The notes under the pieces were generated by a model. The model saw only the letters and a list, made by a program, of their open reading frames with translations, had not been told where the DNA came from and made no database searches. Both the position numbers and the translations under genes were made by a program. 37,260 nucleotides of DNA from a virus, in the UHGV virus genome UHGV-0198360; one strand, 5' to 3'. Every line of letters starts with the position of its first letter. The first letter of the stretch is position 1. Positions 1 through 26,146 of the stretch are shown one piece after another.

Positions 1-1129
1 ATCAACTCAAGTATCGTTGCATGATGAACCGCAGCCAGTACCCCAGAATCACCAGCCTGCACAGAAAGAACATCACTTACGATCGTGCCGTCAGACAATT
101 CTTTATCGCCTACATTAATTGATGCTTCCGGGTAATCGTCATAAAGACCGTTGGCAAGAACACCAATGCCGAATCTGCCTTCCTGCCCCTTAATGTCAAG
201 ATTCCAGGTCGCTGCCGTTATCTTACGCATGGTCGATTTGGGGTTTTCAATGGGCTTCACATTAAGCTTAACGCGGACGTCTGAGGCACCGTTGACCCAG
301 GAGCCAGGGGCGGTCGCATCCCCACTGCCACTAAATCGATACGATGATCCTGAGATCCATAATCCTTGCGCAGAGAGTAATCCGCAATTGATATATGCGT
401 CGGAGACGGGTTGCCCCCACTGGTATCGCGCCTCAATGCTCGCTACAGCCCGGTCCACCCCGGCAATATTATGCACGGAAAGAACTGACGCGCCGTTAAT
501 CGTTACACCATTACCGGGTTCAGAAGCTGTCTCGTTTACTGACTTTATTTCTCCGAACGCTGATATCGTTGATGTTATTTTTCCCCCAGCCTTTCCATTA
601 ACAGAATTGAGCCGGGAGTCATTGCCCTGACAAAATTGTCCCGCTTTATCGCCAAATGGTTGAGAAAGTCCGGTACCGCCCTGCTCTTTCGGAACAACGC
701 CATCAACCTTATCTGCTTTATTGACCACACTACTGATTAACTTTTTCGCTGATGGACCTGTTGTCTGACTGGTGTCAGGCAGCGTGATCGTTACATCACC
801 GTCAGCGGTGAAAAACTGCTGCCAGTTTTGCTTGTCGTAGTTCAGGCCTCGCAGGGCTTCTGCACTTTGTGCCACCAGCGCCGCGGTAACCATATTCAGC
901 GCCACACGAGGAACCGCTGACCAGGCCGCGCCAGATTGTGTTGGCCCGGTGAAATTACTTACCAGCGTCAATGCTGTACCGCTTTCCACTGATTTAACCG
1001 GGAGCGTATAGGGGACGCCGCCGACAGTGACAACAATAAAATCTCCGGCTGCCACCTCGGTGGTAAACGCGGTCCCGTTGCCAGCGACCGCAGCAGAGTT
1101 ATTCGTCAGGGTTAAGGTTCCTGCTGACA
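1..1129 (-). CDS. Tail fiber protein, N-terminal part (3' end runs off window start)
   Basis: Hand translation of minus strand from ATG at 1129-1127 (SD AGGAAAAACT upstream) gives MSAGTLTLTNNSAAVAGNGTAFTTEVAAGDFIVV..., a Gly/Thr/Ser-rich fiber-like N-terminus; not in the ORF track because it has no stop in the window. Confidence 0.55.
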
Positions 1130-19726: not shown

Positions 19727-20316
19727 CAGGCTAACCTCCACGCCCGGCGGCGTTCTGTTCGTGGAGCTGAGTCAGGGTGACGCTCAACCGGTTCGCCGTC
19801 TGCATGGTCCACCAGCGACCAGCAGGGATAGACGACAACGCCACCATAAGCATCGCCCACGGCATAATCGGCAGGCTTACTGCAGTCCCATTGAGACAGC
19901 ACACGGCTGATGCTTTGAGGCGGTATGCTGTAGCACACGCCATGTATCAGGCGTTGCAGCATAATGAAGTCAGACCTCACCTTATCCGCATTAATCAGGC
20001 GTTCAGCTATCTGCATTTGGTATTGCGGTGGCCGCCCAGTGCCCAGATAAAAACTAAGCATGTCGCCAGGGAAACGAGCCAGCCAGCCCGTAATCTTGTC
20101 TCTGAATCCACGTACAGGCAGCGCGTCGTCTTCCAGCACCACTACCCGGCAAGGTTGCTCAGCAGCCCATTCGATAGCGCGCCGGTGATTCCAGTTCGCA
20201 CCGTGATTCCCTTCATCGATAAGCAGGTGTGCGCCAAGTTCGCCAGCCAGCAATGCAGCTGAGGCATAGCGGGAATGGTGACCAATCACAACATACTTCA
20301 CTTGTGTTTCCACCAT
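19726..20316 (-). CDS. Hypothetical protein, possible small glycosyltransferase-like enzyme (196 aa)
   Basis: ORF track; strong SD AAAGGAGA; beta-strand then acidic VVVLEDD motif reminiscent of DxD glycosyltransferases; assignment tentative. Confidence 0.4.
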   Translation of the reverse strand: MVETQVKYVVIGHHSRYASAALLAGELGAHLLIDEGNHGANWNHRRAIEWAAEQPCRVVVLEDDALPVRGFRDKITGWLARFPGDMLSFYLGTGRPPQYQMQIAERLINADKVRSDFIMLQRLIHGVCYSIPPQSISRVLSQWDCSKPADYAVGDAYGGVVVYPCWSLVDHADGEPVERHPDSAPRTERRRAWRLA

Positions 20317-21755
20317 GCGGTCTCCTTTCCGAAGCCATCCGTTTTAAAGATGGTATGCACCAGAGGGCCGGTAACGATTCGATTACCGAATGACTTTGCA
20401 GCCATCCCGAAAGCGCCCATGTCCACCAGCGTGGCGGGAGCTGCTTCCATCTTCCAGAAGCGGTGGCTTTCAATAAGGTAATGCTGACGGATGATCCGGT
20501 GGGCGAACTCCATTACATCTTCACGGTAGCCACCAATCAGGCCAGCATTAAGCAGTTGCTCATCCCGGTGCAGTTCGAAGAACTCGCTATAAGCTTTGCC
20601 GTGGTGATTGTCCTTCATCCATTCGTCAAAGTAGGTTTTGTGCTCGGAGCCAACGTAAATTTTACCCGGCGCCATCTCTGCCCAAGGCTCACGCAGCATT
20701 TCAACGTCTGTCCCGTCAGTACACCAGACAAGATGGTATTCAGGGTGGGCACGAAGATACTGATAGATGTGAAGCCAGCGAGCAAAGTATGGGCTCATGC
20801 CCAACGGCGGGACTTCAAACAGACCGGCGCCAGTTGGCGACTCTTTTAATTCGTCAGCCAGGACAATCGGCAGCGCGCCGGATATTGAATCTGCCCAAGC
20901 CTGAAGAGCCTGCGGGTCGGGTTTCATCTTCCTGCCTCGCTGTGGGTCTGGCTGGCTTGTGAGCAGCGTCGTAATCACTAGATTTGGATTTCTGCTGTAC
21001 GAGGCAAAGCCTGTATAACCGCTGTCGCGTCGAGCGTTGAAGATGCCAACGTTTCTTTTTACCAGTGCCTCTCGGTCAGGCCGTGGTATTGAGCGCACGC
21101 CCTCTTCGTACTCGTCCATTGAGTGAATCAGCTTTTCAGAGCCAACTACATCAGCGAACGCCCACGACGTTAAACCAGCGTTGTGAATCCGAAGCGCCAG
21201 ATCGGGATGCTCGTACATGCCGCGACCGTATACCGGATCGAATCCGCCAACCTTCTTGATGGCGCTGCGGTGGTAGTAAAGCATCACCCCGCGCTGACCA
21301 GTGTAAGCAACATGCTTATCATCACGGTACAGCTCCGCCATGTCGTTCAGCTTATTGCGACCAGCCAGATCCAGAAACTGGTAAGCCAGGTGCGGCTCTG
21401 GTGATTCGATGTAGGGAAGATGCCAGTTATCGGCGATGGGCCAGGCATCATCATCCCATAAAAACAGATGCTCGCACCCGACATCCATCAGGGCTGACAG
21501 GCTGGCGTTCTTCGAGGCAACAATGCCGAGTGATGTTTCATGGCGAAGCAGTTGCACGCCGTCGGGTGCTATCGCTGCAGGTTTTGAACCATCATCGACA
21601 ACCACCAGCAGCGCACCGGCTGGCAGATGCTTCTGGTGCTGCTCAACAGCACGCTTTAAAACGTCCGCCCGGTTGTGGGTGGTAATCGCAATGCCAATCC
21701 GTGACGCTGAAGCACAGGCAGGCAAATACGGGACACCATCAATAGTGACCTGCAT
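20298..21755 (-). CDS. Glycosyltransferase family 2-like protein with extra C-terminal domain (485 aa)
   Basis: ORF track; N-terminal GT-A-like motifs (GIAITTHNRADVL, VVVDDGS, LWDDDAW); SD GGAGA before ATG. Confidence 0.55.
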   Translation of the reverse strand: MQVTIDGVPYLPACASASRIGIAITTHNRADVLKRAVEQHQKHLPAGALLVVVDDGSKPAAIAPDGVQLLRHETSLGIVASKNASLSALMDVGCEHLFLWDDDAWPIADNWHLPYIESPEPHLAYQFLDLAGRNKLNDMAELYRDDKHVAYTGQRGVMLYYHRSAIKKVGGFDPVYGRGMYEHPDLALRIHNAGLTSWAFADVVGSEKLIHSMDEYEEGVRSIPRPDREALVKRNVGIFNARRDSGYTGFASYSRNPNLVITTLLTSQPDPQRGRKMKPDPQALQAWADSISGALPIVLADELKESPTGAGLFEVPPLGMSPYFARWLHIYQYLRAHPEYHLVWCTDGTDVEMLREPWAEMAPGKIYVGSEHKTYFDEWMKDNHHGKAYSEFFELHRDEQLLNAGLIGGYREDVMEFAHRIIRQHYLIESHRFWKMEAAPATLVDMGAFGMAAKSFGNRIVTGPLVHTIFKTDGFGKETAWWKHK

Positions 21756-21772: not shown

Positions 21773-22000
21773 TTATTGACGCTTAATGGTGACCTTCCCG
21801 TAAAGCGACCGCCGTTTCACTTCGCCGTTCTCTGCCGTCATATACCCGCGCTCATCGGGTACAGCGGCAATCACCTCGCCTTTTTCATCATCAGCAGTGA
21901 AAACATGCTTAACCTCTACACCGTCGAGATAAACGGTGTATCGTTCCTGAGCGAGATTAATTTTTCTGCCGGGATCGTCATCTAATACAGTGAGACGCAT
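21773..22000 (-). CDS. Hypothetical protein (75 aa)
   Basis: Track ORF trimmed to internal ATG (MRLTVLDDDPGRKINLAQERY...) preceded by SD GGAGGA; avoids overlap with upstream gene. Confidence 0.5.
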   Translation of the reverse strand: MRLTVLDDDPGRKINLAQERYTVYLDGVEVKHVFTADDEKGEVIAAVPDERGYMTAENGEVKRRSLYGKVTIKRQ

Positions 22001-22019
22001 AAATCCTCCACAGGATTCC

Positions 22020-22253
22020 TTAAGTGAAAGAGATGCCAAAACTAACCAGGACGGTTTTCTTTTCCTCAATCCGGCGATTAAGTTCAGCCACTGCATGTGG
22101 GCGAATAGCATCAACAAAGGCTTTATCCTGATAGGTAGACTGAATTGTCACACCAAGCCCATCACCACTTTCCAGTATGCCTTTCTGTCGTTGTAGCTCT
22201 TTTATCCCGTTGTTGATGTAATATGCTTCGGTCAGATTTTCGACATTCATCAT
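22020..22253 (-). CDS. Hypothetical protein (77 aa)
   Basis: ORF track; start ATG overlaps Rz stop (ATGA). Confidence 0.45.
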
Positions 22254-22783
22254 TCAACCCTTTTGTTATTCGACTCTCTTACCGAGTCGTAAACACGCTC
22301 ACACGTCATTCCAGCGTTGTAGCGGTCGTCAGCGATTCCAGCATATCGTTTAGCCTCTTCTGCAAGGCGTCCGAGCATGTTGGCAAGCAATCCTGCGTTG
22401 GCTCCGCCTGTTTTGCTTCTGACGGCAGCGGCAAGATCTGAGGTGTGCTTTGCTGCGTCCAGGCGGGCGGCAAGCTTTGTTGCTTCGGTACGCAACTGGC
22501 TAACAATGGCAGACAGGCCAGCAGCAGTGGCAGCAGATTTAGCGGCTTGTGCTTGTGCATCTTTAACAGCCTCATCACGGGCAATAATTCGCCCTTGTTC
22601 AATCATGCGGGCGGCGGTCTGGGCGTTCGCTTCCTGTGAAGATTCCACGCTATTGCGGTCAGCCCACTTCTTTTGCCAGCCCCGCTCACTCCAGACATTC
22701 CCGGCAAGAAACGCGCCAGCTAACATCAGCAAAACAATGATTGTATTCCACCGCGCCTTAACAAAAGCAAAGACCGCTGTCAT
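22250..22783 (-). CDS. Rz-like i-spanin (177 aa)
   Basis: ORF track; N-terminal transmembrane helix ([14 protein letters not shown]), Ala/Gln-rich coiled-coil periplasmic domain; immediately downstream of endolysin. Confidence 0.75.
22306..22560 (-). CDS. Rz1-like o-spanin, embedded in the +1 frame of Rz
   Basis: Embedded ORF with lipobox LLASC followed by a Pro-rich sequence; start taken at the internal Met of the track ORF ([23 protein letters not shown]...). Confidence 0.6.
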
Positions 22784-23397
22784 ACCAGCAACGCCGCCCG
22801 CGCTTTGTTATAACGACTATTTCTGTCAGCCAGCCCGTTCTGGCCACCGTTGATGATCTGCGTGACACGAACAACATCACCTGAATACATAAGGCAACCA
22901 CGTAAGGTGAAGTACCATGCCGCCGAACGAGCCGCATGTCGCTCTTGCGTCAGAAGTTCTGGCGTACTGACAAGGTCAAGCTTCAGCGCCAAACCGCATT
23001 TGGTGTAGTTCTCGCGGCCGGTGATTTGAAGCAGGCCACGACCGCGATATTTCCAGCCATCACCCGGGCTGTTATTTCCCATGCGGTCACCATAAACCAG
23101 ATTGGCTATTTGCGGCTGGTGGGCCACTTGCTTACCATCTACTCGCCCCAGCATTTCACACTGATACGGTGTCAGGCGTTTACCAAAGGTTTTCTTTAGC
23201 CCGTCTACCGAGTAGTTGAAGCTCTCGACCAGCGAGGTAAAACCAGCAGATTCATGCCCAATTTGTGCAATGAACATAGCCAGATCGTTTACTGCTGTGA
23301 TTCCAAACTCTTTCATTGCCGCATCAATGTGCGGAAACCAGCGTGCAGAAAGCCCGGCGCTGATACCAGCCGCCTGCTGAAATTGTTGTTGGTTCAT
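22780..23397 (-). CDS. Endolysin, glycoside hydrolase family 19 (chitinase-like) type (205 aa)
   Basis: ORF track; motif [12 protein letters not shown] and overall pattern typical of GH19-type phage lysins; overlaps Rz start. Confidence 0.7.
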
Positions 23398-23406
23398 GGG
23401 GATCCT

Positions 23407-23742
23407 TTACTTGGCGTCGCCACCAAAGCGAACATTGAAAACGCGTGTGGCCACCGAGCGCACCTGCTCAACGCCAACGAACCCCAGCGCGCCACCGATA
23501 GCAATGGAAAGTGACTGCGGAAGACTGAAATACTCGAGTGCGGAAACAGCCGTCAGTGTCATGGCGCCACACATCAACCCTTCCAGCACCATCTTTTTCC
23601 AGCCGCCGCCACCATATGCAATCCGCAGTACAGCCATCGCTACCGATAAAAGAACTGCGCCAATTGGCGTATCACCGCGCCACCAGCTATGAAGTAACTC
23701 AATTAACTCCGTCCAGGAGTGAGGGTCGTTGTGCATTTTCAT
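23407..23742 (-). CDS. Holin, lambda S-like with MKM dual-start motif (111 aa)
   Basis: ORF track; N-terminus MKMHND parallels lambda S Met1-Lys2-Met3; hydrophobic segments; SD GGAGGTG; directly upstream of endolysin. Confidence 0.7.
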   Translation of the reverse strand: MKMHNDPHSWTELIELLHSWWRGDTPIGAVLLSVAMAVLRIAYGGGGWKKMVLEGLMCGAMTLTAVSALEYFSLPQSLSIAIGGALGFVGVEQVRSVATRVFNVRFGGDAK

Positions 23743-23909
23743 GGTCTCTCACCTCCGATTCTTCGGATGGCGCTGTGTGATGAAAGGAGGATCAGGCTTC
23801 TGGGCTCTTATGCAAAGGTGAAAGTAATGGTGATTCCCAGAGCCTGAAATAGAAAAGGCCGCCAAATGGCAGCCTATAGATTATGTCCCGCGTTTTACTA
23901 GAGAGTGAA

Positions 23910-24152
23910 TTAAGCCTCTAGTTCATTTAAATAGCGATGACCCTTTGACGTGATTCTATTCACTATCCAGCTGTCGTCACGTTCAGACGTACTCTGCACA
24001 GCATTTACCAGTCCCAACTCAGCGAGATCAGAAATAGCAAAATTTACCGCTTCCGCTGGTATGTGAGGCAGATTTAAAGATTGAATTACTTCATGTGGTC
24101 CAAGAGCGCTTGCGCGACGCAGAATTTCGATATGAACAGATGTTAATTTCAT
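23910..24152 (-). CDS. Hypothetical protein (80 aa), cargo gene between tR' and holin
   Basis: ORF track; AT-rich; lies at the position occupied by stx and other morons in lambdoid phages. Confidence 0.45.
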   Translation of the reverse strand: MKLTSVHIEILRRASALGPHEVIQSLNLPHIPAEAVNFAISDLAELGLVNAVQSTSERDDSWIVNRITSKGHRYLNELEA

Positions 24153-24233
24153 TATGCCGCCTTTGTGTTGTCGTTTTGCTTGCGGCTATTGTAACACATT
24201 GATTTTGACGTAGATTGAATGGCCTAGCACCCA

Positions 24234-24258
24234 AAAAAACCCGCTCGGTGGCGGGCTT
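24234..24258 (-). terminator. Candidate tR'-like intrinsic terminator downstream of late promoter
   Basis: Minus strand hairpin CCCGCCACCGAGCGGG followed by T7. Confidence 0.6.
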
Positions 24259-24268
24259 CTTAACTCTG

Positions 24269-24296
24269 AACATACAATGCCCATCGTTAATGTCAA
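24269..24296 (-). promoter_or_regulatory. Candidate late promoter (PR'-like)
   Basis: Minus strand TTGACA - 16 nt - TATGTT located 44 bp downstream of the Q-like gene stop and just upstream of the terminator. Confidence 0.55.
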
Positions 24297-24339
24297 ATAT
24301 ACACAAAAACGGCAACATTGCAAACATCGTGACGCTAAA

Positions 24340-25170
24340 TTACGCGATATTTATCACATCTTCACTTTTAGTCACCCGGTTCAGTTGAGAACTTGAATAA
24401 CTCTCCTCCTGGAAACATTTGGTCACCAAGATTTCATAGAATGGTTTCCAGCTATAACGCCACGTCCGGTCTGGCAGACTGGGCAACTCGGAAAAAACAC
24501 CGCGATAGGCAACCGATGATTTTGGCCTGCTGTATCCCCGACCTTCACAGCGCTTACATTCTTTGTAAACCGGTACGCCCTGCAGTTCTGTCGCTTTACG
24601 GTCAATAGTCTTACCTGTGCCGCCGCACTGGCATCGCTTACTTAACTTTCCGGTGCCATGGCAGCGGGAACATAACGTATGATCAGTGTCAGTTACATCG
24701 CGCTTAACCTCAAAGTCAGATGGTGACTGTCTCAGGTCTTTTGCCCATTGTGGCAATCGCATTGTGTAATGGCTTTTAGTCACGGTTTTAGTGGTTGTAA
24801 GCAACCCTTTACCACTACATTTTGGGCATGCCACACAATCAGCTGCTGATGAGGAATAATCGTTATAGGCAAACCGGGCAAGGATACGCATGCAGAGGGG
24901 AAACTTTTTCCCTGATGCTTTACGAATAGCCATGGGAGCATGCTCTTTCGCGTACTCCGTTAGCCAGGCAATTGACGCCTCCCTGTCCTGGCTGCTGATA
25001 CAAGCTTTACCCAGAAACATTGCCAGCCCGATGCCCGCATCAGCCTGAGTCATCCCCAGTGCCGCCATTACATCAGTCACAGTAAGTTGCTCACTTGCTG
25101 TCGCTCTGCTGGTATCTGAGATGTGCATGCCTTTAGGCGCAAAAAACTTTAAAACATTGTCCAGATTCAT
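24340..25170 (-). CDS. Late antiterminator Q-like protein with four CxxCxGxG zinc-finger repeats
   Basis: ORF trimmed to ATG at 25170 (SD GGAGA); repeats CPKCSGKG, CSRCHGTG, CQCGGTG, CKRCEGRG; position immediately upstream of late promoter/terminator and lysis genes. Confidence 0.6.
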   Translation of the reverse strand: MNLDNVLKFFAPKGMHISDTSRATASEQLTVTDVMAALGMTQADAGIGLAMFLGKACISSQDREASIAWLTEYAKEHAPMAIRKASGKKFPLCMRILARFAYNDYSSSAADCVACPKCSGKGLLTTTKTVTKSHYTMRLPQWAKDLRQSPSDFEVKRDVTDTDHTLCSRCHGTGKLSKRCQCGGTGKTIDRKATELQGVPVYKECKRCEGRGYSRPKSSVAYRGVFSELPSLPDRTWRYSWKPFYEILVTKCFQEESYSSSQLNRVTKSEDVINIA

Positions 25171-25186
25171 ACGGTCTCCATACTTC

Positions 25187-26146
25187 TTAAGCTGTCGCAA
25201 TTACGCCGATCGCCAGCGCCCGATCCATAAAACGCAGTAGCAGCTCAAGCTGCGTACCATGCTTTTGCTCGAATGCCGGTACATCGGCGTGTAACTCATC
25301 GTGGCACTCTCTGCACAGAGGGATCACGAAGAGGTCATGGGCTTTTGTTGCTGTACCACCCATACCGTGCCCTACGATATGGTGCGGATCATCTGCTGGC
25401 CGTCGGCAACACTCACAGGGTTGTGTTTTAACCCAGCGGGTGTACGTCTCATTTATCCAGCGGCGTCGCTTTGGCCTGAGCATGAAAGACTCTGGCGACT
25501 CTGGATCAACAGAGAGCGTGAGGATCTTCTTCGCCTTCTCCTGAACGAGTCTGGTTGCTGACGAGGAAGGCACTATGTCGCTTTCCCTCATGACAGAACG
25601 GATCTTCTCATCCGGAAGGCGCAGCCCTTTGTGCGCAACGCTTTCCGGAATAATATCAGCCAGGTCGTTTCTGACCATCCACCAGCACAGTTCCGGAAGC
25701 GTCAGGATATGCGACTCGGGAAAACCAGAATCACGCCGAATGACTTCCAGAATCCAGGATACCAGGTTTCCGGCCGCTATACCTGCAAGCTGTTCGGTAT
25801 GCTGCCCCGACAAAGTGTGATCGCAATGCCAGCACAGGCGAATACTTCCTGGTGGGTGCCGCATTGTTGTGAAGTTCTTGTCGTGCCACGATGAATGTGG
25901 CCACTGGCATTCAAACCGATTACTCAACCATTGCTCAAGGGAAGAAATCCCACCGGCACGCTGAATAACCCTCTCATTCTCGAAGACCTGACGCATTACC
26001 GGATCATCAGTCAGCGGCTGAATGGCTGCCGGAACAGCCCCGGTACTGAATGACGCCATTTCTTCTGGTTCAGGCTCGAGCAGAACGCGACCACGCATGA
26101 AGAGGTGCATCAGTTCCGCACCAGGACGGAACAACACAATCCCCAT
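25187..26146 (-). CDS. DUF968-like protein with C-terminal HNH-like Cys/His motif (start uncertain)
   Basis: ORF track (342 aa from GTG at 26215); C-terminal CECCRRPADDPHHIV...CRECHDELH; several in-frame Met candidates and none has a strong SD. Confidence 0.5.
   Translation of the reverse strand: MGIVLFRPGAELMHLFMRGRVLLEPEPEEMASFSTGAVPAAIQPLTDDPVMRQVFENERVIQRAGGISSLEQWLSNRFECQWPHSSWHDKNFTTMRHPPGSIRLCWHCDHTLSGQHTEQLAGIAAGNLVSWILEVIRRDSGFPESHILTLPELCWWMVRNDLADIIPESVAHKGLRLPDEKIRSVMRESDIVPSSSATRLVQEKAKKILTLSVDPESPESFMLRPKRRRWINETYTRWVKTQPCECCRRPADDPHHIVGHGMGGTATKAHDLFVIPLCRECHDELHADVPAFEQKHGTQLELLLRFMDRALAIGVIATA

Follow-up and report, generated by a model that had tools for sequence, protein, structure and literature searches.

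A predicted lambda-type late switch with a one-gene winged-helix moron between tandem terminators in virus genome UHGV-0198360

The present analysis concerns the late-control interval between a Q-like antiterminator gene and a holin gene in UHGV virus genome UHGV-0198360; the whole stretch of 37,260 nucleotides (nt) is called the window below. It is rather probable that this interval, likely of Citrobacter origin, is the ordinary switch of the late operon of a lambda-like prophage, in which a one-gene moron lies between two tandem terminators. The stretch under study is read 5′ to 3′ on the minus strand, which carries all its genes, in the following order: a DUF968 gene, the Q-like gene, a gap of 187 nt, an open reading frame (ORF) of 80 amino acids (aa), a gap of 167 nt, the holin, the endolysin and the spanin genes. 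Promoter-like sites in this region (five, versus 2.9 ± 1.6 in shuffled sequences) and terminator-like sites (three, versus 3.4 ± 1.7) are not in excess over shuffles. Therefore, our interpretation rests on homology and conservation.

This work indicates that homology to the lambda pause element makes it possible to recognize a late switch of lambda type from its sequence. It also documents, for this group of enterobacterial prophages, a cargo hot spot between two tandem late terminators, as well as a small winged-helix family that, with a conserved predicted promoter of its own, travels between the late regions of unrelated Q proteins and holins. The window adds a new member to three known kinds of element: the Q-lambda cassette, the moron and the DUF2513-like winged helix.

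Late promoter and Q antiterminator

An earlier note on this DNA, made without database searches, had assigned the late promoter PR′ to the near-consensus sequence TTGACA-16-TATGTT, directly downstream of the Q-like gene. Both the gene and the pattern (24296..24269, 10 matches out of 12) are present, but alignment of lambda positions 43800..45600 with the window at PR′ places this promoter 27 bp further upstream. The lambda sequence TTGACT-17-TAAATT-TGACTC-AACGATGGG is collinear with TT(T)GCAA-16/17-TATATT-TGACATT-AACGATGGG in the window. In lambda, the GGG occupies positions +7..+9 and the pause occurs at +16/+17 (PMC5001585), so that +1 is the first A of AACGAT. We consider that PR′ is probably TTGCAA-16-TATATT, with a predicted start at about 24288 (Table 1), because of this homology and because TTGCAA, TTGAC(A/G) and AACGATGGG are conserved among relatives.

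The 9-mer AACGATGGG is present in a single copy in the 37-kb window (0.40 copies expected) and sits inside the spacer of the TTGACA-16-TATGTT pattern. The pause element was found after every lambda-type Q examined. In the Q-loading complex, sigma region 4 is repositioned onto a −35-like site that immediately precedes the pause element (PMC9388147). The TTGACA of the earlier note (24296..24291) aligns with the lambda TTGACT that adjoins this element, and its TATGTT lies at +15..+20 of the predicted transcript, in the pause region. The consensus-looking promoter thus appears to be a false lead, the sigma-binding elements of a paused complex mimicking promoter hexamers.

From IMG/VR, 80 loci encoding a Q of the window type (76–99% identity) were collected. 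AAYGATGGG follows Q in 73 of them, one occurrence being spurious, and the true PR′ sequences amount to 34 distinct versions. The upstream −35 hexamer TTGCAA is kept in 33 of these 34 versions and the −35-like TTGAC(A/G) in all 34. The upstream −10 hexamer reads TAAATT (as in lambda), TATATT, TAGATT and similar sequences, while the variants GTAATT and TTAATT become TAATTT on a shift of one base. At the position of TATGTT, the essential A2 and T6 are both retained in only 19 of the 34 versions, the variants being TATGTC, TATAAC, TATATC and TGTGTT.

These data bear on the alternative that TTGACA-16-TATGTT is itself PR′, with a start at about 24262 and a hairpin only a few nt into the RNA. This sequence is the best sigma70 match of the interval, with a consensus −35, and TATGTT is the most frequent variant at its position (18 of 34 relatives). 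However, such a −10 would have lost A2 or T6 in 15 of the 34 distinct relatives. Furthermore, a start at 24262 would leave AACGATGGG and the −35-like site upstream, unusable by a lambda-type Q, and would yield an RNA of about 25–29 nt whose hairpin begins at about +4, without space for a +16/17 pause before the terminator. More distant relatives that encode a lambda-type Q of 250 aa have neither hexamer of this promoter but retain TAAGAT-tttctc-AACGATGGGG, and also AACGATGGG. Overall, we regard this alternative as very unlikely. If the pattern is a secondary start, it might yield the same RNA of about 25–29 nt, which a lambda-type Q could not modify. We also considered that TATGTT could be a vestige of a phage 82-type pause, imported with the cargo, an idea prompted by the TGaTATGTT-GCC of relatives with a Q82-type Q. 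It was rejected because GGGC(A/T)TTGTATGT(T/C) is conserved with the lambda-type Q subfamily even where there is no cargo.

The antiterminator gene itself belongs to the lambda-Q family, PF03589, which is distinct from PF06530 (Q21) and PF06323 (Q82) (PMC9388147). In the ORF list, it reaches back to a TTG at 25200; the call of 276 aa from the ATG at 25170 follows the relatives. The lambda Q chains of PDB 7UBM/7UBN match it (E = 2.7e-43) in two blocks around a Cys-rich insertion. The order known for Q cassettes, i.e., Q gene, PR′, sigma-dependent pause element, terminator and late genes (PMC9388147), is also that of the window. Homology supports the arrangement of PR′ and tR′ that the earlier note had proposed, as a late-control region of lambda type. 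Within the Q subfamily of the window, the PR′ spacer GTTGCCGTTTTTG is nearly invariant and, by its position, is a candidate Q-binding element, although its sequence is unlike that of lambda.

Compared with the lambda Q/PR′/6S RNA/tR′ cassette, the window shares a PF03589 Q, the order −35, spacer, −10 and −35-like TTGAC(T/A), the identical AACGATGGG, and an intrinsic terminator followed by an S-family holin, an endolysin and a spanin. It differs by its shorter leader (about 55 nt versus 194 nt in lambda), by a Cys-rich stretch of about 64 aa inserted into the arm of Q, by its cargo gene between two tandem terminators, by its different spacer and by one extra bp before the pause element. The last two differences weigh against our reading of the late switch, since the candidate Q-binding element shows no resemblance to that of lambda and 2 bp instead of 1 bp separate the −35-like element from AACGAT. 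So do two further points: both start sites used here (about 24288 for PR′ and about 24181 for the cargo promoter) are predictions, and TTGACA-16-TATGTT could also fire.

Some features of the window Q can be mentioned beside these results. Its insertion relative to lambda Q (residues ~113–175) lies at the base of the zinc "arm" and brings two further CxxCxGxG motifs, four in total, which resembles the double zinc center of DnaJ; the Pfam model DnaJ_CXXCXGXG gives 30.1 bits on the window Q, under its cut-off. More than 230 relatives are present in IMG/VR. Since the arm of lambda Q touches DNA and sigma region 4, the enlarged arm might alter Q loading.

Tandem terminators and the cargo slot

The first predicted terminator, tR′1, is a hairpin followed by U7 (fold of −14.8 kcal/mol, z = −3.4 relative to shuffles), with a stem conserved among relatives and a variable loop. 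The hairpin and U-run that the earlier note had placed within about 30 nt of its promoter are there, but they span about +31..+56 of the predicted transcript, which would give a terminated leader RNA of about 53–56 nt. A scan of 22000..26000 with Rfam (E ≤ 1) detected no family above threshold. The Trp-leader match covering PR′ and tR′1 (24231..24320, minus strand; 21.5 bits versus a threshold of 41, E = 0.5) is almost certainly a false positive driven by the terminator.

Downstream of the 80-aa ORF, tR′2 has a fold of −14.9 kcal/mol (z = −4.6 relative to shuffles); a pattern scan places its hairpin at 23875..23856, before a T-tract. Its loop is free to vary and its stem tolerates G-U changes. 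The presence of a hairpin with a T-tract after the cargo was correctly seen by the earlier note, but this terminator does not appear to be the cargo's own, as it is present in relatives devoid of cargo.

Pause element and holin are separated by 87 to 2169 nt in the 61 loci that encode both a Q of the window type and a recognizable holin. Nine of these loci (including L082, L104 and L070) carry no cargo and still retain both terminators, about 20 nt apart, in the order tR′1, ~20 nt, GGCTGCC-loop-GG(C/T)GGCC-T5-7 and holin leader. Seven loci carry the winged helix-turn-helix (wHTH) gene found in the window and the rest other cargo, including a HemY-N-like gene in three. The holin is also preceded by the tR′2 hairpin in L128, a distant lineage described below, and where the cargo is a different one. 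Because the cargo-free relatives keep tandem terminators, the basic order would be PR′, pause, tR′1, tR′2 and holin. Judging from these comparisons, tR′2 belongs to the tandem terminators of the phage and not to the cargo, and the slot that receives all cargo of this phage group is bounded by these two late terminators. Luk and Szybalski are said to have described, in 1983, tandem terminators of the late operon of lambda.

Two E. coli strains illustrate exchanges at this slot. One of them has the same Q and PR′, diverges just after the pause element and carries a HemY-N-like gene of 178 aa. The other has a Q82-type Q followed by the same 80-aa cargo gene and holin. Searching phages with the region (megablast) returned one short unannotated match (~113 bases, 79% identical), located in the leader between tR′2 and the holin.

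The slot is equivalent to that of the Shiga toxin genes and other morons in lambdoid phages, a known hot spot for cargo, as the earlier note had suggested. In relatives, it holds other cargo or none. The late region of Stx phages has the order PR′ - tR′ - stx - S, with a short PR′ transcript that is the small RNA (sRNA) StxS (PMC7547250). The cargo of the window likewise lies downstream of PR′/tR′ and upstream of the holin, and, by analogy, a short terminated PR′ RNA would be expected to be made constitutively (PMC7547250). Unlike an Stx phage, however, the window carries an 80-aa winged helix and not an AB5 toxin, no tRNA genes were found, the cargo has its own predicted promoter and a terminator after it, and the leader RNA has no Rfam match that would point to a regulatory role.

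Morons of HK97 and HK022 were reportedly described by Juhala and colleagues in 2000 as promoter-gene-terminator units, to which bor and lom of lambda also belong. Like these elements, the 80-aa gene is present or absent among close relatives at the same site, lies between conserved genes, has a lower GC content than its neighbors, and has a predicted promoter and a downstream terminator. Unlike them, this terminator would be part of the tandem late terminators of the phage and not of the insert.

Cargo promoter and invariant block

The region between tR′1 and the start codon of the 80-aa gene was aligned from 45 loci, which represent 21 distinct sequences. A stretch of 31 nt, TCAATCTAC[G/A]TCAAAATCAA[T/A][G/A]TGTTA[C/T]AAT, has only four variable positions, while variation is free in the mRNA leader and in the 10–12 nt upstream of this stretch, and the proteins go down to 51% identity. 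The 3′ part of this stretch is an extended −10 element, TGnTAYAAT, at 24196..24188 (TGTTACAAT), and the only occurrence of TGNTAYAAT in the window. Its TG, T-12, A-11 and T-7 are fixed and, within the hexamer, position 3 alone varies, which fits sigma70. In the lineages L128 and L129, whose proteins share 33% identity with that of the window and which lack the 20-bp block described below, TGaTACAAT and TGgTAAAAT are found 27–29 nt before the start codons. In all, an extended −10 is conserved in four diverged lineages. These comparisons constitute good evidence that the 80-aa gene has its own promoter, the predicted Pmor, which the earlier note had missed. It is through this predicted promoter that the unit would qualify as a moron and not simply as the leading gene of the late operon.

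The 5′ part of the conserved region contains a 20-bp block, TCAATCTACGTCAAAATCAA, that has a single variable position across the 21 distinct sequences. Of its 24 matches in IMG/VR, 22 adjoin the 80-aa gene, and in lambdoid contigs the block is found only there; the remaining two fall within an unrelated ORF on a contig rich in AT and were discarded as chance matches. No other copy that could serve as an operator was detected in the window with up to three mismatches, and the block contains no match to a sigma70 −35. An exact core consensus for the integration host factor (IHF), AATCAA-NNNN-TTA (AATCAATGTGTTA), lies at 24204..24192 on the minus strand, overlapping the cargo −10. The NNNN of this consensus coincides with two of the four positions that vary in the 31-nt stretch, and the consensus has two exact matches in the whole window. 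Either the winged-helix protein may use the block as its own operator, or the block may be a site for a host factor, namely IHF.

The absence of a recognizable −35 weighs against a cargo promoter. Against an operator for the protein, inspection of the block by eye revealed no dyad symmetry, only TCAA direct repeats, and the IHF consensus could account for the conservation of the block without the protein. Some of these points would suit an alternative in which the 80-aa gene lacks its own promoter and simply opens the series of Q-dependent late genes, while TGTTAYAAT and the block would act, for instance, as an IHF site, as an additional sigma-dependent pause or as a module boundary for recombination. 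The lack of a −35 match, the exact IHF core WATCAANNNNTTR with two variable bases in its NNNN, and the position of the block at the left edge of the conserved cassette would all be compatible with this. However, the extended −10 stands at the same distance from the ATG in the 33%-identity lineages, in which the block is missing, and the pattern of variation, in which position 3 alone is free, corresponds to a sigma70 −10. Furthermore, a terminator directly after a gene that is already behind a terminator best fits independent transcription. We therefore consider a gene without its own promoter unlikely.

With Pmor retained as the preferred reading, the whole switch can be proposed to work as follows. 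By analogy with lambda, RNA polymerase would start at about 24288, sigma70 would re-bind AACGAT and the complex would pause near +16/17. Without Q, transcription would end at tR′1 and an RNA of about 55 nt would be released. Once positioned on the spacer of the promoter and loaded onto the complex in its paused state, Q would allow read-through of tR′1, of the cargo and of tR′2, up to the holin, endolysin, spanin and structural genes. Between tR′1 and tR′2, the 20-bp block, the extended −10 (TGTTACAAT), the ribosome-binding site (RBS) and the 80-aa winged-helix gene would form a self-contained cassette, whose gene would be expressed from Pmor in the lysogen. In this state, tR′2 would keep the transcripts from Pmor, and any leak through tR′1, out of the lysis genes.

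The 80-aa protein and neighboring features

The AT-rich ORF that the earlier note had seen between tR′ and the holin is present (24152..23910), with a GC content of about 43%, compared with 50–57% in its flanks. Its product is 100% identical to a Citrobacter "hypothetical protein". The family is very small: seven clusters were found among 5.8 billion sequences, and a profile search of 1.84 billion representatives gave seven proteins at E ≤ 0.001. No match was detected by tblastn in 50,697 GenBank phage records, and a profile search of genome contigs with the family alignment yielded no confirmed relative. The protein scores 27.8 bits against DUF2513 (PF10711), under the Pfam gathering threshold of 29.6. 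All 10 aligned relatives match DUF2513 at E ≤ 0.01 (best 3.4e-28), and it can be regarded, from these matches, as a divergent short branch of DUF2513. It also matches phrog_32916, of unknown function (E = 2.4e-21).

The predicted fold is a compact winged helix modeled with confidence (pLDDT, the predicted local distance difference test, of 92). The best structural matches are DNA-binding domains of the MarR, PadR and ArsR types, of which only the wHTH core aligns (65–76 residues of chains of 130–160); the fold search of BFVD gave only weak, unnamed wHTH matches. A "...LxxxGLV..." recognition helix and an "ITSKG" strand-helix motif are present, and the HTH segment is the most conserved portion of the family. 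The protein shares its winged-helix fold, its recognition helix and its ITSKG motif with DUF2513 and MarR-like proteins. However, it is shorter (80 aa versus about 100–120 for DUF2513 and about 140 for MarR), and it lacks the N- and C-terminal dimerization helices of MarR, which sets it apart from that family. The toxin features that the earlier note did not find were not detected here either: searches of Pfam, PHROG and PADLOC revealed neither a toxin domain nor a signal peptide, but only wHTH/DUF2513 matches. PADLOC gave only a meaningless weak match, with no defense signal, and NCBIfam nothing useful.

The ORF is intact, at 79–89 codons, in all of the more than 45 loci examined, and pairwise ratios of nonsynonymous to synonymous substitution rates (dN/dS) range from 0.29 to 0.68, with dS up to 0.51. 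These values indicate a real gene under moderate purifying selection. That the interval would merely be a non-coding leader is extremely improbable: the ORF is short, reaches no named family above threshold and has no counterpart in the GenBank phage collection, but its intactness, its dN/dS below 1 at such dS values, its RBS, its confident fold and its PHROG match all speak against it. As a separate observation, the alleles of L002 and L017 differ by seven nonsynonymous and no synonymous changes, which hints at diversifying change in the protein, but these numbers are too small for significance (p ~ 0.16).

In every place looked up, the 80-aa gene lies directly between Q and the holin, including in L128 and L129. 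Its Q partners are lambda-type proteins of 276 or 250 aa (PF03589) or Q82-type proteins of 229 aa (PF06323), and its holin partners are of the lambda-S type (PF05106), of the P21/HP1 type, or holin_8 together with holin_3_7. In the PR′ of phage 82, an extended −10-like element is combined with GCC at +15..17, and an AT-rich stretch leads to a pause at +25 (PMC5001585). Relatives with a PF06323 Q and the same cargo display TGaTATGTT-GCC-AAAGTTTT, which fits this layout, unlike the arrangement of the window, which is of lambda type. Since the cargo is found behind a PF06323 Q in these relatives, the cassette moves between late regions of unrelated Q proteins. In L002 (2880..2990, with equivalents in L012, L016 and L017), TTGCAA-17-CATATT and TGaTATGTT-GCC-AAAGTTTT are followed by the tR′1 stem of the window with another loop.

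Our best guess, which we put forward tentatively, is that the 80-aa protein is a small DNA-binding regulator of the invariant block at its own promoter (autoregulation), perhaps with other targets too. Both DNA binding and autoregulation are far from certain because the protein is mildly acidic (isoelectric point, pI, of 5.7; 5.2–6.3 in the family), because its wing is acidic and variable, and because the 20-bp block lacks dyad symmetry. The protein could instead work through protein contacts, as an adaptor or as a regulator of a partner or host factor, and may be the remnant of a two-gene cassette in which a membrane protein of 231 aa is the effector. The family-wide acidic pI, the acidic and variable wing, the occurrence in the 51%-identity lineage of a 231-aa neighbor with a hydrophobic C-terminal part, and the presence of winged helices like the N-terminal domain of MotA among the structural matches would agree with this proposal. 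Conversely, the closest structural matches are DNA-binding domains, the HTH segment is the best conserved part, an invariant DNA block is found at the gene's own promoter, and the form with one gene is more frequent and, without any partner, is kept by purifying selection. Action through protein contacts hence seems rather unlikely to us, and a DNA-binding regulator remains the preferred reading.

The two-gene cassette just mentioned was observed in L035 (3501..4830) and also in L036-L046, which constitute the 51%-identity lineage. There, a winged-helix gene of 89 aa comes first, followed by a hairpin devoid of U-run (GGCTGCCAATTGGCAGCC), the gene of the 231-aa protein, the usual tR′2 and the holin. 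The 231-aa protein belongs to phrog_30208, has no Pfam match and is strongly hydrophobic in its C-terminal half. Its gene is flanked by two similar GGCTGCC hairpins that look like repeats possibly mediating its gain or loss. The cassette of the window may be a one-gene version of this two-gene cassette.

A wider proposal can be made, which is speculative and in our opinion improbable. The 80-aa protein would found a position-specific family of winged-helix regulators expressed in lysogeny and living only between tandem late terminators. Bound to the 20-bp site, possibly with IHF, it would autoregulate and act on late transcription or lysis, for instance as a roadblock or a fail-safe against leaky PR′ read-through, or on superinfecting phages or host genes. 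Separately, the PR′ leader, about 55 nt long and constitutive, could act in trans as an sRNA similar to StxS. Were the 80-aa protein to control lysis, host genes or late transcription of the prophage, it would represent a new regulator of lysogenic conversion, but nothing in the present data demands this.

Table 1. Features of the late-control interval of the window (coordinates of the 37,260-nt stretch)
Feature	Position	Strand	Basis or remarks
Q antiterminator gene	24340..25170	-	276 aa, lambda-Q family, Pfam PF03589, E = 2.3e-45
Predicted PR′ late promoter: −35 TTGCAA (24323..24318), 16-bp spacer (24317..24302), −10 TATATT (24301..24296)	24296..24323	-	Collinearity with lambda
"−35-like" TTGACA	24291..24296	-	Alignment with lambda TTGACT
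Predicted sigma-dependent pause element AACGAT and GGG discriminator (AACGATGGG)	24280..24288	-	9-mer identical to lambda +1..+9
Predicted intrinsic terminator tR′1: stem (24258..24237), U-run (24239..24233)	24233..24258	-	Fold and stem conservation
Invariant 20-bp block TCAATCTACGTCAAAATCAA, about −37..−18 of the cargo promoter	24199..24218	-	Conservation; candidate operator or factor site
Predicted Pmor, extended −10 TGtTACAAT (TGTTACAAT), start predicted near 24181	24188..24196	-	Conservation
80-aa winged-helix gene, short DUF2513 branch, phrog_32916; RBS AGG (24162..24160)	23910..24152	-	
Predicted tR′2, second tandem late terminator, before the lysis genes	23846..23875	-	Fold and recurrence in relatives
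Holin gene, lambda S family, first gene of the lysis cassette	23407..23742	-	Pfam PF05106, E = 9e-32

Downstream of the holin, Pfam and PHROG matches identify a GH19 endolysin and an Rz-like spanin. The holin begins with Met-Lys-Met (23736..23742), as does lambda S with its dual start S107/S105. A small hairpin (CCGAAGAAUCGG) beside the holin Shine-Dalgarno sequence (23743..23800, minus strand) recalls the sdi structure of lambda. Between the spanin and terminase genes, the window carries an ORF of 485 aa (20298..21755, minus strand), whose N-terminal part has weak glycosyltransferase-like matches (NCBIfam, E ~ 2e-6), and small neighboring ORFs (21773..22253). This interval holds different genes in other prophages that share the Q/lysis module and looks like a second cargo slot.

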